A stretch of DNA of 64,000 nt from contig JAADHC010000054.1 in NCBI GenBank assembly GCA_013152085.1, forward strand, positions 10,756-74,755, read 5' to 3'. How positions within the stretch are numbered: position 1 is the first letter of the stretch; each line of letters opens with the position of its first letter. Shown here one piece after another: positions 22,674 to 59,157 of the stretch. A program made the position numbers and the translations under genes. The notes beneath the pieces are model-generated. The model saw only the letters and a list, made by a program, of their open reading frames with translations. It was not told where the DNA came from and made no database searches. This stretch comes from Chlorobiota bacterium (lineage in GTDB: Bacteria; Bacteroidota; Bacteroidia; Bacteroidales; VadinHA17).

Positions 22674-23558
22674 GTGACACTCATCCATACATATCTCGAC
22701 TATCTTAAATATCAGAAAAGGTATTCAGAGCATACCGTATCTTCATACAATACGGATTTATTGCAGTTTGCCGGGTTTTGTCATCGTTTCTATCCCGCGG
22801 TAAAACTCCAGGATGTTGATTCCAAAACCATACGTAAGTGGCTGGTTGCCCTTGTCGAACAGAATCACAGGCCTTCAACGGTTAACCGAAAATTATCAGC
22901 TGTCAAATCTTTTTATCGTTTTTTAATCCGGGAGAATAAAATACTTTCCAATCCTGCATCAATGCTTACCGGTCCCAAAGCCGAAAAGGTCCTTCCTGTA
23001 TTTGTAAGAGAAGATGATATAAATAAATTATTGGATCAGCACGATTTCGGTGAGGATTTTATTGGCCTGCGTAATCAGTTAATCATTGAAATGTTGTATG
23101 ATACAGGGATGCGCCGGGCTGAGCTGATTGGGCTGAAACAGACGGATATTAACCTTGGCGAGCTGTCATTAAAGGTTCTTGGGAAACGAAATAAAGAACG
23201 GATTATTCCTATTACGACTGAACTGGCCCGAAAAATTTCTGTATATATTAAAGTAAGGGAAGAACAATTTCACGGAGGTTACGATCGTTTTTTCGTTACA
23301 GGAAAAGGCAGGCCATTGTATCCGAAACTTGTTTACCGGGTTGTCAATAAATATCTGGGAATGATCACAACATTGTCACACAGGAGTCCGCATATATTGC
23401 GTCATACATTTGCCACACATTTGCTGAACCGGGGTGCTGACCTGAATGCCATCAAGGAAATGCTGGGACATGCCAATTTATCTGCAACACAGATTTATAC
23501 ACATAATACTTTTGAAAATCTAAAGAAAGTTTACAGAAAGGCTCATCCAAGGGCCTGA
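22674..23558 (+). CDS. xerC: Tyrosine recombinase XerC-like
   Basis: YDTGMRRAEL, GKRNKER, SPHILRHTFATHLL, LGHANLSATQIYTH, AHPRA; conserved rpsU-xerC-hpf synteny. Confidence 0.88.
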   Translation: MTLIHTYLDYLKYQKRYSEHTVSSYNTDLLQFAGFCHRFYPAVKLQDVDSKTIRKWLVALVEQNHRPSTVNRKLSAVKSFYRFLIRENKILSNPASMLTGPKAEKVLPVFVREDDINKLLDQHDFGEDFIGLRNQLIIEMLYDTGMRRAELIGLKQTDINLGELSLKVLGKRNKERIIPITTELARKISVYIKVREEQFHGGYDRFFVTGKGRPLYPKLVYRVVNKYLGMITTLSHRSPHILRHTFATHLLNRGADLNAIKEMLGHANLSATQIYTHNTFENLKKVYRKAHPRA

Positions 23559-23588
23559 TCGTTTTACAAAAAAAAAGGAGGAATTGTT

Positions 23589-23888
23589 ATGAACGTACAG
23601 ATCCATTCGCTTAAATTTGATGCCGACAGAAAGTTGTTGGAATTTGTGGAAAATAAAACCTCAAAGCTGTCAAAGCTAAATGAGAATTTAATGAGTGCAG
23701 AGGTTTTTTTGCGTTTGGACAAAAGTGAAACTTCTGATAATAAGGTTGTTGAAATCAAGCTTGAGATGCCACGCACCTCTCTTTTTGCTAAAAAGCAAAG
23801 TAAAACTTTCGAAGAGGCTACCGATCTGGCTGTAGATGCTCTGAAGAAACAAGTTAACAAACAGAAGGGGAAACTGAGGGGTGTCTGA
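23589..23888 (+). CDS. hpf: Ribosome hibernation promoting factor (HPF/RaiA)
   Basis: MNVQIHSLKFDAD..LFAKKQSKTFEEATD; sigma-54 modulation/S30EA family. Confidence 0.92.
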   Translation: MNVQIHSLKFDADRKLLEFVENKTSKLSKLNENLMSAEVFLRLDKSETSDNKVVEIKLEMPRTSLFAKKQSKTFEEATDLAVDALKKQVNKQKGKLRGV

Positions 23889-23915
23889 GAATTCTGTTAA
23901 AATAGCCTTCTAATT

Positions 23916-23947
23916 TTTGTGTTATCAATTTTATTTTTCTACATTTG
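23916..23947 (+). promoter_or_regulatory. Promoter of the tRNA-tuf operon
   Basis: TTTG (23916-23919)-N20-TACATTTG (23940-23947); boxA-like GTTCTTTGA at 23981. Confidence 0.7.
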
Positions 23948-23994
23948 CAATCCGATTTTCGGGGGTATCCTGAGGGTGAGGTTCTTTGATCTAT

Positions 23995-24068
23995 GCCGAT
24001 GTAGCTCAGCTGGTCAGAGCAGCTGATTTGTAATCAGCAGGTCGTGGGTTCGAATCCCTCCATCGGCT
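23995..24068 (+). tRNA. tRNA-Thr(TGT)
   Basis: Acceptor GCCGATG/CATCGGC, anticodon arm GCTGA-TTTGTAA-TCAGC, TTCGAAT loop. Confidence 0.97.
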
Positions 24069-24086
24069 CGGGATGGTACAAAATAA

Positions 24087-24169
24087 GGGGAGATACCAAA
24101 GCGGTCAACTGGGGCAGACTGTAAATCTGCTGGCTGATGCCTTCGTAGGTTCGAATCCTGCTCTCCCCA
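24087..24169 (+). tRNA. tRNA-Tyr(GTA)
   Basis: Acceptor GGGGAGA/TCTCCCC, GCAGA-CTGTAAA-TCTGC, long variable arm. Confidence 0.97.
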
Positions 24170-24242
24170 CTTTGGTTATTTATGGTATAGCAGTACGATA
24201 ATAAACGGATAAATGTTCTTTAAAATATTGAAATAATAGTAG

Positions 24243-24383
24243 GCGGGAGTAGCTCAGTCCCGATTCTTCCCAAAAGGGGCTGCCTTTGGCAGCAATACTT
24301 TTGGAAGAAGAATCGAGGATCCACGAAAAACGACGCAAATCACAGATTTGCTGTTTTTCGGGATTGGTAGAGCATCAGCCTTC
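24243..24383 (+). pseudogene. tRNA-Gly 5'-half pseudogene, interrupted in the D-loop and truncated in the anticodon loop
   Basis: GCGGGAGTAGCTCAG + 106-bp insert + TTGGTAGAGCATCAGCCTTC, then diverges (AGAG). Confidence 0.9.
24258..24363. mobile_element. 106-bp REP/MITE-like double-hairpin insertion with TCCCGA/TCGGGA ends
   Basis: Present in one copy of the duplication and absent from the other; hairpins at 24258-24319 and 24320-24363; no target-site duplication. Confidence 0.75.
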
Positions 24384-24415
24384 AGAGGTTCTTTAAAATA
24401 TTGAAATAATAGTAG

Positions 24416-24488
24416 GCGGGAGTAGCTCAGTTGGTAGAGCATCAGCCTTCCAAGCTGAGGGTCGCGGATTCGAATTCCGTCTCCCGCT
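24416..24488 (+). tRNA. tRNA-Gly(TCC)
   Basis: Acceptor GCGGGAG/CTCCCGC, TCAGC-CTTCCAA-GCTGA. Confidence 0.97.
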
Positions 24489-24493
24489 CGAAA

Positions 24494-24566
<73 letters not shown>

Positions 24567-24630
24567 CTAACATGTTAAAATGAATAATATAAAAATGTAA
24601 ATATCAAGTGAAAATCTAATTTTTAAAATC

Positions 24631-25818
24631 ATGGCAAAAGAAAAATTTGAAAGAACAAAACCCCATGTTAATATCGGTACGATTGGTCACGTTGACCATG
24701 GTAAAACCACATTGACATCTGCCATCACAATGGTACTGGCCAAGCAAGGTCTTGCCCAGATTAAGGACTTCGATTCCATTGACAATGCTCCCGAAGAAAA
24801 AGAACGCGGTATTACCATTAATACTGCTCACGTAGAATATGAAACAACCAAGCGTCATTATGCTCATGTTGACTGTCCCGGTCACGCCGACTATGTGAAG
24901 AATATGGTTACAGGTGCTGCCCAGATGGATGGTGCGATCCTGGTTGTCGCTGCTACCGATGGTCCTATGCCACAAACCCGTGAGCATATCCTTCTGGCCC
25001 GTCAGGTAAACGTACCCAGAATTGTGGTTTTCCTCAATAAAGTGGATATGGTTGATGATGAAGAACTGATTGAACTTGTTGAAATGGAAGTTCGTGAGTT
25101 GCTGGATTTTTATGAGTTTGACGGTAACAATACACCGGTGATCCGGGGTTCTGCCTTAGGGGCTATGCAGGGAGATGAAAAATGGCAGAAGAAAGTTATG
25201 GAATTGATGGATGCCGTTGATGAATATATTCCTGTCCCTCCGCGTGATATTGAAAAACCTTTCCTGATGCCTGTAGAGGATGTGTTCTCGATTACAGGCC
25301 GTGGTACCGTGGCTACAGGAAGAATTGAAACAGGTGTGATCCATACCGGTGACGAAGTTGAGATGATCGGACTGGGTGCTAACAAGCGGAAAACGGTGGT
25401 TACCGGGGTGGAGATGTTTCGCAAGATTCTTGATACCGGTGAAGCTGGCGACAATGTCGGACTCCTGCTTCGTGGTGTTGACAAAAAAGAGATCAAGCGT
25501 GGCATGGTTCTGGCCAAGTCGGGTTCGATTACACCGCATACCAAATTTAAGGCTGAGGTTTATGTTTTGAAAAAAGAAGAAGGTGGCCGTCATACACCCT
25601 TCCACAACAAATACCGTCCGCAGTTTTATCTGAGAACTCTTGATGTTACCGGCGAAATTACCCTTCCGGAAGGAACAGAAATGGTCATGCCCGGTGATAA
25701 TGTAACCATTACGGTCGAATTGATTTATCCGGTTGCTATTAACAAGGGATTACGTTTTGCTATCCGTGAAGGCGGACGCACCGTAGGTGCCGGCCAGGTT
25801 ACGGATATCATTGAATAG
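24631..25818 (+). CDS. tuf: Elongation factor Tu
   Basis: [30 protein letters not shown]. Confidence 0.99.
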
Positions 25819-25880
25819 CATTGAGATGCCTGTTGATATTACAGGCTGCCATGGCTCAATCAATTGCCGAAAAGACAGAC

Positions 25881-25953
25881 ACGGGTGTAGCTCAGTTGGT
25901 AGAGCACTGGTCTCCAAAACCAGGTGTCGGGAGTTCGAGTCTCTCCTCCCGTG
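25881..25953 (+). tRNA. tRNA-Trp(CCA)
   Basis: CTGGT-CTCCAAA-ACCAG anticodon arm, TTCGAGT loop; lies between tuf and secE. Confidence 0.96.
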
Positions 25954-26057
25954 CTACTTTTACGATCAAAAATGGAAAAAACGCTGTAGCAAATCTTCCC
26001 GGGATAATACCTTAAATATAACATAGTCCTGGCAGGTTGCTAAAAAAAGCAAAAAAA

Positions 26058-26249
26058 ATGAAATTCAAATCCTTTTTTTCAGAGGCCTACAACGAGTTGA
26101 TGCATAAAGTAACCTGGCCGACATGGAGTGAACTTCAGAACAGTGCGGTAATCGTTATGGTCGCTACCATTCTTATTGCAATGGTTATTTTTCTGATGGA
26201 TTTTTCATTTCAGCATATTATGGATTTTGTTTATAAGCTGTTTTTTTAA
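26058..26249 (+). CDS. secE: Preprotein translocase subunit SecE
   Basis: [15 protein letters not shown] plus a single TM; synteny. Confidence 0.95.
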
Positions 26250-26266
26250 TACCCAGGAGCAAGAAA

Positions 26267-26815
26267 ATGTCAGATACGGAAAAAAAGTGGTATGTACTGC
26301 GGGCAATCGGAGGGAAGGAGAAGAAGGTTAAAGAATATATTGAATCGGAAATCTCACGGTTAAACCTTCAGGATTACATTGCACAGGTACTGATCCCAAC
26401 CGAAAAAGTATACCAAATCCGTGCCGGGAAGAAGATTTCCAAGGAGCGCAATTTCTTTCCGGGATATATCCTTGTCGAAGCGACACTGGCCGGAGAAATT
26501 GAGCATATTTTATCCAATATCCCGAATGTTATCGGATTTCTGGGAGAAGAACACGGAGGCGAACCGGTGCCTTTGCGACCCGCTGAAGTGAACAGAATCC
26601 TGGGGAAAGTGGATGAACTTGCCAATAGTGATGAGGAAATCAATGTTCCTTTCTTTGTTGGAGAAACGGTAAAAGTAATTGACGGACCTTTTAACAGCTT
26701 TACAGGCGTAATTGAGGAAGTGAATGAAGAGAAGAAAAAATTAAAGGTAATGGTTAAGATCTTCGGGCGGAAAACACCGCTTGAACTGAGTTTTATGCAA
26801 GTTGAAAAAGAATAG
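26267..26815 (+). CDS. nusG: Transcription termination/antitermination factor NusG
   Basis: [17 protein letters not shown] motif [19 protein letters not shown]. Confidence 0.98.
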
Positions 26816-58882: not shown

Positions 58883-59157
58883 GGAGATTGCCACGCCACC
58901 TGCGGTGGCTCGCAATGATCCGGCTATAACAAAAAAGGAAAAGAAGAGAAACGGAATAGCAAACAATATGCCGGACACTGAGTGTCCCGCGAAGCGGGAT
59001 GTATCGAAGTGTCCGGGAGTCACTGACCTCCCGGAGATGTCGCAAAGCGACAGAGGGGTGAGTACAGCAGATGCCACAAAATGTGTTCATAACCACTGCA
59101 TGACAGCGACTGAAGCTCCCCTTCGCTGCCAGGCTCCGGTGAGCGGAGCGAGTTGCA
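58883..59157. repeat. Cluster of several REP-like palindromes between convergent genes
   Basis: GAGATTGCCAC-GCCACCTGCGGTGGC-TCGCAATGA; CCGGACACT..TCCCGCGAAGCGGGA..AGTGTCCGG; TGTCGC-AAA-GCGACA; GCTCCG-GTGAG-CGGAGC. Confidence 0.75.

Follow-up and report, generated by a model that had tools for sequence, protein, structure and literature searches.

A double hairpin in a truncated tRNA-Gly copy of a Bacteroidales genome: a probable relic of tRNA-loop cassettes linked to single-domain GIY-YIG nucleases

The Ssn family of single-domain GIY-YIG nucleases, which act site-specifically on single-stranded DNA (ssDNA), and the NTS/SRM hairpin repeats found with them (Chenal et al. 2025, PMC11893778), are the closest described system to the element presented here, a 106-bp double hairpin lodged in a truncated copy of a tRNA-Gly gene of a Chlorobiota bacterium (GTDB lineage Bacteria; Bacteroidota; Bacteroidia; Bacteroidales; VadinHA17). 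The element lies in a window of 64,000 nucleotides, the whole stretch of DNA that was analyzed (assembly GCA_013152085.1, contig JAADHC010000054.1, positions 10,756 to 74,755 of the forward strand). As in the Ssn system, a GIY-YIG-only protein of approximately 85–100 amino acids (aa) is involved, its gene adjoins a hairpin repeat of which many solo copies are scattered elsewhere, and the arrangement of repeat and gene resembles that of an insertion sequence (IS). The cassettes described below differ in being embedded in tRNA genes, with partial copies of the tRNA, and neither “tRNA” nor “Bacteroid” occurs in the text of PMC11893778. Ssn proteins belong to CDD family cd10448, are GIY-YIG-only and some 90–100 aa long, and cut ssDNA beside their hairpins; GIY-YIG-only ORFs (open reading frames), of 78–94 aa, are found in the present genome at loci other than that of the window. 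We consider it probable that positions 24215–24387 of the window are a 173-bp, ORF-less relic of a cassette that occupies tRNA loops and is linked to single-domain GIY-YIG nucleases, a reading built on the anatomy of the unit, on a hairpin family with covariation, on its recurrence at many tRNAs and in several genera, and on the linkage of hairpin, ORF, and tRNA.

The integrative elements that target tRNA genes carry a partial copy of the tRNA, with which the gene is rebuilt, and leave the displaced fragment at attL or attR; they are kilobases in length, have integrases of the tyrosine or serine type, and usually restore the 3' part of the tRNA. The present units resemble them in carrying a partial tRNA copy, in the rebuilt, intact gene, and in the displaced fragment left behind, but they measure only 173–420 bp, regenerate the 5' part from a breakpoint in the D-loop, and have no integrase. 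The repetitive extragenic palindromes (REPs), with the bacterial interspersed mosaic elements (BIMEs) and REPINs, are short, abundant, imperfect palindromes associated with RAYT transposases. We know of no REPs inside tRNA gene fragments, and the RAYT-like gene of the present genome is flanked by another repeat family. The likeness to the REPs, which are also treated in PMC11893778, lies in short and abundant imperfect palindromes, arranged as doublets and often found between convergent genes. A comparison can also be drawn with GIY-YIG homing endonucleases of the free-standing kind, for instance SegB, encoded within the phage T4 tRNA gene cluster (PMC2330249), where a GIY-YIG gene likewise lies among tRNA genes and is inherited with flanking tRNA sequence. 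The Seg proteins, however, possess DNA-binding domains, cut double-stranded DNA, and lie between genes; they are not known to split and regenerate a tRNA, and no junction hairpin is known for them. A 2006 survey of GIY-YIG proteins mentions tRNA only in another context, and a full-text literature search recovered no description of hairpin-split tRNA fragments with GIY-YIG genes in bacteria, although the supplementary lists of homologs and flanking repeats that accompany the Ssn paper lay outside this search and might include such loci.

The locus forms part of the tRNA cluster upstream of tuf, which runs Thr(UGU), Tyr, Gly(UCC), and Thr(GGU), followed by tuf and Trp. The parts of the unit, and the working gene that follows it, are:

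24213–24242 (+): leader copy 1, ATGTTCTTTAAAATATTGAAATAATAGTAG; its repeat with copy 2 begins at 24215
24243–24257 (+): displaced 5' fragment of tRNA-Gly, nt 1–15, GCGGGAGTAGCTCAG, from sequence comparison
24258–24319 (+): hairpin 1, 62 nt, enclosing a GCTGCC-TTT-GGCAGC hairpin; absent elsewhere from the genome
24320–24363 (+): hairpin 2, 44 nt, which defines the family, TCC-A-CGAAAAAC..GCAAATC-ACA-GATTTGC..GTTTTTCG-GGA; covariance model E = 2.5e-12
24364–24383 (+): displaced tRNA-Gly nt 16–35, TTGGTAGAGCATCAGCCTTC, ending in the anticodon loop; 20/20 identical to 24431–24450, with divergence thereafter
24384–24387 (+): junction filler, AGAG
24388–24415 (+): leader copy 2, GTTCTTTAAAATATTGAAATAATAGTAG, directly 5' of the working tRNA-Gly; the same putative relic as copy 1
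24416–24489 (+): intact tRNA-Gly(UCC), called by ARAGORN and Rfam (73.4 bits); the only UCC gene found in the assembly

Sequence comparison shows that the 43 nt at 24215–24257 (leader plus tRNA nt 1–15) are identical to 24388–24430, and the 20 nt at 24364–24383 to 24431–24450. When the 106 bp at 24258–24363, which lie between nt 15 and 16 of the tRNA-Gly(UCC) sequence (junctions GCTCAG/TCCCGA...TCGGGA/TTGGTAG), are taken out, the sequence of the intact copy is restored exactly, and the borders are therefore exact, with no target base duplicated, as a sequence-only reading of the window had claimed. The D-loop position given in that reading also holds, but the host is not a working tRNA gene. 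The interrupted copy ends at nt 35 of the tRNA (24383), where it is followed by AGAG and the second 28-nt leader, with a repeat period of 173 bp; with its 28-nt leader and tRNA nt 1–35, it amounts to a truncated 5' duplicate, and no gene. Only the intact gene is called by ARAGORN and Rfam, and the truncated copy lies 52 nt upstream of it. Given this intact tRNA-Gly downstream, splicing is unnecessary, and so is the earlier suggestion that the insert might be tolerated as an extended D-loop, or be excised.

When the 106 bp are folded as ssDNA, the result is two hairpins that abut and have bulges of a single base (−34.7 kcal/mol, z = −9.2, with none of 200 shuffles as stable), which bears out the pair of hairpins with TCC(N)CG...CG(N)GGA feet described from the sequence; folded as RNA with its flanks, the insert has a z of −5.9. 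The element has no match in Rfam, and no Rfam intron family was found in 23500–26500 at E up to 1. A tRNA intron, whether group I, group II, or the archaeal bulge-helix-bulge type, was rejected on these grounds, with a host copy that ends at nt 35 and an intact gene downstream. An integrase-type att scar was likewise rejected: the insert measures only 173 bp and lacks an ORF, it is the 5' part that was displaced, and the flanks are tRNA-Tyr and tRNA-Gly/Thr/tuf. A retro-copy origin of the 5' duplicate was dropped, given that the reverse transcriptase domain (PF00078) has no match in the genome.

The complete 106 bp are unique in this genome, and while hairpin 1 has no relatives, those of hairpin 2 are found on many contigs. 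In what follows, G000 is the genome under study, other G numbers are compared genomes, C denotes a contig, and L an extracted locus. An iterated nhmmer search of the genome recovered 56 unit matches, which merge into 23 loci. When 24 units, taken from this genome and from four other genera, are aligned, 98.3% of the cells are paired and both sides have changed in eight of the 18 pairs, including the terminal pair (TCC..GGA, TGC..GCA, TTC..GAA); the covariation score was reached by none of 500 shuffles, and no slid register came near it. Directly upstream of 11 of the 39 tRNA genes called by ARAGORN, and on the same strand, the same succession is found: a 5' fragment of the tRNA, one or two double hairpins in the D-loop or D-stem, 9–25 nt of further tRNA, an AT-rich linker of 15–113 nt, and the intact tRNA. 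These loci are Gly-UCC, Pro-UGG, Pro-CGG, Pro-GGG, Arg-ACG, Val-UAC, Val-GAC, two Met, Ala-GGC, and Phe, and none of the 11 hairpin-bearing tRNA sequences is a full-length copy. The units stand in tandem at Pro-GGG (two) and at Arg-ACG (at least two, across a contig break). There are also variant layouts, with a 16-nt TCCCGACCTGTCGGGA palindrome in the anticodon arm (Asn), a 5' fragment that has no hairpin (Arg-CCU), and other inserts (Ser-GCU and Leu-UAA).

The family extends well beyond this genome. With a covariance model, the unit is recovered from 38 of 61 genomes of the family, with 0–59 matches each, and its distribution, patchy even within genera, is typical of mobile DNA. The layout of fragment, hairpin, linker, and tRNA recurs in other genera at Pro (G008 and G017), at Met with two 151-bp units (G006), and at Gly-GCC (G013). 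A scan of a sequence collection for the center of the element returned at least 80 loci, and hidden Markov models (HMMs) confirm 55 elements in 47 of the loci listed, nearly all in metagenome-assembled genomes of Bacteroidota. The junction GCGGGAGTAGCTCAG/TCCCG occurs in three metagenome stretches, two of which have the same layout, with a tRNA-Gly(UCC) before tuf, in another, unrelated organism and with a different hairpin sequence, while the third is a chance match inside a coding region; a search for same-species alleles in metagenomes by an exact 47-nt pattern gave no matches. The earlier proposal of a non-autonomous palindromic family recurrent in tRNA D-loops is thus upheld, and the absence of other copies, which would have told against it, is not what was found. 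In two further Bacteroidales genomes (L047, 900–1075, and L069), the pseudo-tRNA upstream extends to the T-arm, and ends in ..GCGTTC before a T-rich linker; in L047, a second palindrome, TCCCGCTTTTTGGAACAAAAAGCGGGA, stands in place of the anticodon arm.

The comparison of the site in relatives, which had been suggested with the first description, found it empty: neither fragment nor hairpin lies in the Tyr-Gly interval at any of 10 related loci. In the nearest of these (G017), tRNA-Tyr is followed by 26 nt, GGTTCTTT with the leader, and tRNA-Gly, and in the metagenome contig of a relative, Tyr and Gly are joined by 34 letters, including GTTCTTTAAAATAATGG. These empty sites bear on the possibility, which we regard as quite improbable, that fragment and hairpin are no mere debris but have been domesticated in the tRNA operon as an RNA or DNA signal, whether for processing or stability, for attenuation or termination, or as a decoy. 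Each hairpin unit resembles a bidirectional terminator (A-run, hairpin, T-run), a simple scan gives terminator-like sites within the element, the unit would be co-transcribed inside its operon, the hairpins are preserved by covariation, and non-tRNA copies lie between convergent genes. Such covariation is equally expected, however, for a DNA palindrome that is recognized as a hairpin, and a terminator 5' of an essential, single-copy tRNA would be harmful. The units are also patchy, variable in copy number, and often in tandem, which, with the 10 empty orthologous sites and the absence of any Rfam match, argues against such a signal.

An assembly artefact, in the form of a repeat-induced chimera in a draft or MAG-like assembly, is hardly credible. 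Several contigs do end within the repeats of hairpin and tRNA fragment (C10/C71, C21/C66, C56, and C44), for which reason some tRNA loci are probably unassembled, and no sequencing run with source reads covers the locus: among the public runs, the highest share of sampled words was 0.22, and four mapped runs hit only the conserved tRNAs of relatives, leaving 24192–24407 uncovered, which says nothing for or against the junctions. The same architecture is nevertheless found at 11 loci in this genome, in independent assemblies that include the single-contig genome G070, and in two metagenome contigs from different samples. No tRNA-Arg(UCU) was found in the whole assembly.

The link to the nucleases comes from the ORFs that lie between such hairpins and tRNAs. 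The small GIY-YIG ORFs (80–130 aa in relatives) have the Pfam GIY-YIG domain as their sole domain (E = 1e-12 to 2e-17); among solved structures, the best matches are the UPF0213 proteins 1zg2 (E = 1e-7) and 1ywl (E = 1e-6), and in NCBIfam they have only sub-threshold matches to group I intron endonucleases. All four of those in this genome lie 21–78 nt downstream of tRNA genes; the ORFs are found in relatives, or downstream of other tRNAs of this genome, and none at the window locus. In G017, a GIY-YIG ORF lies between a hairpin-bearing tRNA-Pro fragment and the intact tRNA-Pro, so that the search for GIY-YIG genes beside copies, also suggested earlier, was rewarded. This ORF, as a query, has matches in 47 of the 61 family genomes, and 85 of the 101 rows among the matches listed have no internal stop. 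In 28 of the best 30 GIY-YIG loci of the 61 genomes, the ORF is no more than 150 nt away from a tRNA gene; in seven of the 30, the hairpin lies directly upstream of the ORF by HMM, and in an eighth by eye. Among the best 30 hairpin loci, in turn, a GIY-YIG ORF lies about 10–25 nt downstream in four, and a tRNA within 200 nt in eight.

Two arrangements of these cassettes are observed. In the upstream type, found mostly at tRNA-Pro, tRNA nt 1 to about 20 are followed by the double hairpin, tRNA nt 21–30 (approximately), some 12 nt, and the ATG of the ORF, the end of which runs into the intact tRNA. The hairpin occupies exactly the same junction in every ORF-bearing tRNA-Pro cassette of this type examined (eight loci, at least six genera). 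Upstream-type cassettes also form tandem arrays, of two units (384 bp) in G070, a genome in a single contig, and of five units with a 423-bp period in G067 (L203, G067:C7:325870-329118), directly 5' of tRNA-Pro(GGG), where some units contain stop codons. A cassette at tRNA-Asp has a 16-nt TCCCGAGAACTCGGGA palindrome in the anticodon loop, and no double hairpin. In the downstream type, the tRNA is followed by the ORF, and one locus of this genome (C59:18150-18660, minus strand) adds hairpins and a second copy of the last 21 nt of the tRNA: it runs tRNA-Ala(GGC), a 99-aa GIY-YIG ORF, two hairpins, and the 3' 21 nt of the tRNA with the first 75 nt or so of the ORF region, with a period of 369 bp. 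This unit is a cassette on the T-loop side, which regenerates the tRNA's 3' end.

The leaders of the window tRNA-Gly point in the same direction. The intact ORFs of one subgroup begin with ATGTTCTTTGTTTACATATTGGAA (MFFVYILE; G023, with G063 and G003 similar) or with ATGAGGTTCTTTGTTTAC (G006), and the ORF start in relatives, ATG(AGG)TTCTTTG, is matched by the window leader ATGTTCTTTAAAATATTGAAA. This leader reads ATGTTCTTT-AAAATATTGAAATAATAGTAG, alternatively written ATGTTCTTT-AAAATATTGAAA, and the other leaders in the genome include ATGTTCTTTGATTACAGCATATT (Arg), CATGAGGTTCTTTGTTATTTTC (Pro-CGG), and GTGAGGTTCTTTGATCTAT (Thr-UGU, in the window). Of the 39 tRNAs, 13 have the motif GTTCTTT in the 60 nt upstream of them, against 0.29 expected from its frequency in the genome. 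We infer from these short matches that the leaders may be collapsed ORFs, in which the start is joined to a few terminal bases; on this reading, the collapsed ORF of the window would have shrunk to 28 nt, ATGTTCTTT..ATATTGAAA..TAG, and would now serve as a tRNA leader. A promoter or processing motif, or a junction of T-loop truncation, had also been considered for GTTCTTT, and both were dropped in favor of the ORF-start reading, the latter because intact ORFs begin with ATG(AGG)TTCTTTG. In L047 and L069, GTTCTTT coincides with the pseudo-tRNA end ..GCGTTC, which the ORF-start reading leaves unexplained. The leader of tRNA-Thr(UGU) in the window is, judging by its sequence, probably an older relic of the same kind; similar leaders precede this tRNA in most related genera, and it may therefore be a very old cassette relic, fixed as an operon leader. 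This leader and the neighboring tRNAs are:

23950–23994 (+): leader of tRNA-Thr(UGU), composed of CGATTTTCGGGGG, a hairpin, and GTGAGGTTCTTTGATCTAT
23995–24069: tRNA-Thr(UGU)
24087–24170: tRNA-Tyr
24494–24567: tRNA-Thr(GGU)

A mechanism can be proposed on the basis of the cassettes of related genera. There, the full cassette lies at the D-loop position of a tRNA gene and consists of the double hairpin with its TCCCG...CGGGA feet, 9–16 nt of downstream tRNA, about 12 nt, and a single-domain GIY-YIG ORF of some 85 aa, the 3' end of which leads into a new copy of the 5' part of the tRNA. Insertion therefore strands the old, promoter-attached 5' part upstream of the hairpin, and rebuilds a complete tRNA downstream. 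In the window, the stranded fragment would be inert, with tRNA-Gly function provided by 24416–24489. The nuclease may recognize the hairpin, or the hairpins of the tRNA gene, as ssDNA, by analogy with the action of the Ssn nucleases on their repeats, and it may have a part in mobility. Recombination or slippage between the direct repeats that the 5' part of the tRNA forms, of 15–43 nt, would account for the gain, loss, and amplification of units, and a small circle entering by a single crossover within this repeat would give exactly the present layout. The direct repeats, 43 nt here, would allow both precise loss and tandem amplification, which would fit the empty sites and the arrays, while the solo hairpins elsewhere may have been spread by the same machinery.

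A number of observations weigh against this reading of the locus. The genome contains no ORF-bearing cassette of the upstream, hairpin-side type, and the GIY-YIG link at the window locus rests on relatives and on the putative 28-nt remnant. The two leader relics of the window are identical, which would call for a local duplication later than the collapse of the ORF, or for a unit acquired from an allele of this locus. The 30 GIY-YIG loci and the 30 hairpin loci are the best-scoring, and no random sample, and the presence of hairpin and ORF is not associated across the 61 genomes (both in 29, hairpin only in nine, ORF only in 18, and neither in five). The hairpin lies 5' of the ORF in upstream-type cassettes, but it does not fit the degenerate SRM motif published for the Ssn repeats (PMC11893778), which has no matches in the element and five cassettes, and only seven in the whole genome. 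Among the matches listed from the collection scan, only nine of the 55 elements lie within 250 nt upstream of a tRNA, which means that most are not at tRNAs; these nine share the layout, one of them at a tRNA-Ile inside an rRNA operon, and the rest lie within genome-specific tandem arrays of 7–9-bp units. Six of the nine non-tRNA hairpin loci of the genome are between convergent ORFs. The nine loci, all in G000, are:

C4:30336-30423, C7:5078-5165, C7:15905-15992, and C38:10294-10381: near-identical 88-bp copies at four non-tRNA loci
C11:45736-45843, C23:3765-3849, C9:63534-63576, C20:66071-66113, and C12:3625-3665: further non-tRNA copies

The non-tRNA copies are flanked by 7-bp direct repeats or by (TGGTTCY)n heptamer arrays, with seven of seven bases matching at three loci and six of seven at two, and the genome contains three solo hairpins. 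Near-identical copies between convergent ORFs, with 7-bp repeats, indicate that the hairpin can spread without ORF or tRNA, and that it could be a separate parasite. Together with the lack of association, the predominance of hairpins away from tRNAs, and the missing SRM match, this makes an independent life, like that of a REP or a miniature inverted-repeat transposable element (MITE), a serious rival, which we nonetheless rate as unlikely. The double hairpin would then be moved in trans by some transposase and land in many places, its D-loop copies surviving only in fragments already dead from GIY-YIG cassettes or integrases, and the nuclease link would reflect a shared target rather than a shared machine. 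The placement of copies between convergent ORFs recalls the REPs, and the 5' fragments with no double hairpin, at Arg-CCU and Leu-UAA, are as expected. Against this, the junction of the hairpin is identical in all eight of the ORF-bearing tRNA-Pro cassettes, the Asp and Asn cassettes hold a 16-nt TCCCGA..TCGGGA palindrome at the junction, the 7-bp duplication is missing from the tRNA sites, including that of the window, and no candidate transposase was found adjoining any copy.

The sequence-only reading had attributed the element to HUH chemistry, in which IS200/IS605 or RAYT enzymes would mobilize a non-autonomous palindrome, as ssDNA, into hairpin loops without target-site duplication, the insert being tolerated in the tRNA or excised from it. 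The genome encodes three Y1 HUH proteins, one of them RAYT-like, the tRNA-site insertion lacks a target-site duplication, and the targets are hairpin loops. The bases 5' of the element are variable, however (CAG, CGG, TGG, TAA, and TAG), where IS200/IS605 elements would show a fixed tetra- or pentanucleotide, and no duplication at any site, in contrast with the 7-bp repeats at the non-tRNA copies. The truncated host copy needs neither tolerance nor excision. The search for RAYT and IS200 genes beside copies led to other GC-rich hairpins: the RAYT-like Y1 gene (194 aa, C11:46764-47348) has doublets of a different, GC-rich palindrome, cctgacactgacaggatcccggcaggccgggaacgctgtcaggtcagg, on both sides (C11:46600-47500; L015, 1040–1920), and beside the two IS200-like genes stand short GC hairpins of other kinds. 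The cctgacactgacaggatcccggcaggccgggaacgctgtcaggtcagg palindrome is a separate REP family, and the 106-bp element is not the inverted repeat that flanks the RAYT gene, as a REPIN of that gene would be. We therefore hold this attribution to be very improbable, in favor of the relic of a nuclease-linked cassette.

A small palindrome related to cctgacactgacaggatcccggcaggccgggaacgctgtcaggtcagg lies inside the tRNA-Arg(ACG) fragment (C10/C71). The palindrome at 58985–58999, once taken as kin to the element, does exist, but is the core of a different, nested palindrome (window 58972–59016, GGACACTGAGTG-TCCCGCGAAGCGGGA-TGTATCGAAGTGTCC), with three further copies in the genome (C6:15804, C27:35817, and C49:5815), which form a small repeat family of their own.

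Taken further than the window locus, and put forward tentatively, at slightly less than even confidence, the units may represent an undescribed class of mobile cassettes, composed of a single-domain GIY-YIG gene, a TCCCG..CGGGA-footed junction hairpin, and a partial tRNA copy. Such a cassette would invade D-, anticodon-, or T-loop positions, these probably being recognized as hairpins in ssDNA, rebuild the tRNA, so that the host survives, use the tRNA promoter, amplify in tandem, and decay to ORF-less units and solo hairpins, which would now form the leader at one in three tRNA genes of this genome. Were this the case, it would explain the many hairpin-bearing tRNA fragments, the conserved GTTCTTT motif in the leaders of 13 of the 39 tRNA genes, and the ending of contigs at tRNA loci, and split tRNA sequences of this kind would have to be annotated as relics, rather than as intron-containing genes or regulatory leaders. 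Pairs of nuclease and hairpin would be candidate ssDNA tools, and the hairpin-specific GIY-YIG nucleases would gain a concrete genomic lifestyle and a natural target. For the organisms themselves, the essential tRNA genes of a whole family of Bacteroidota would be the preferred home of a tiny selfish element, which would have solved the problem of lethality by carrying a replacement for the part that it displaces, and would thus mirror, from the 5' side and in about 170–420 bp, what the large integrative elements do at the 3' end.

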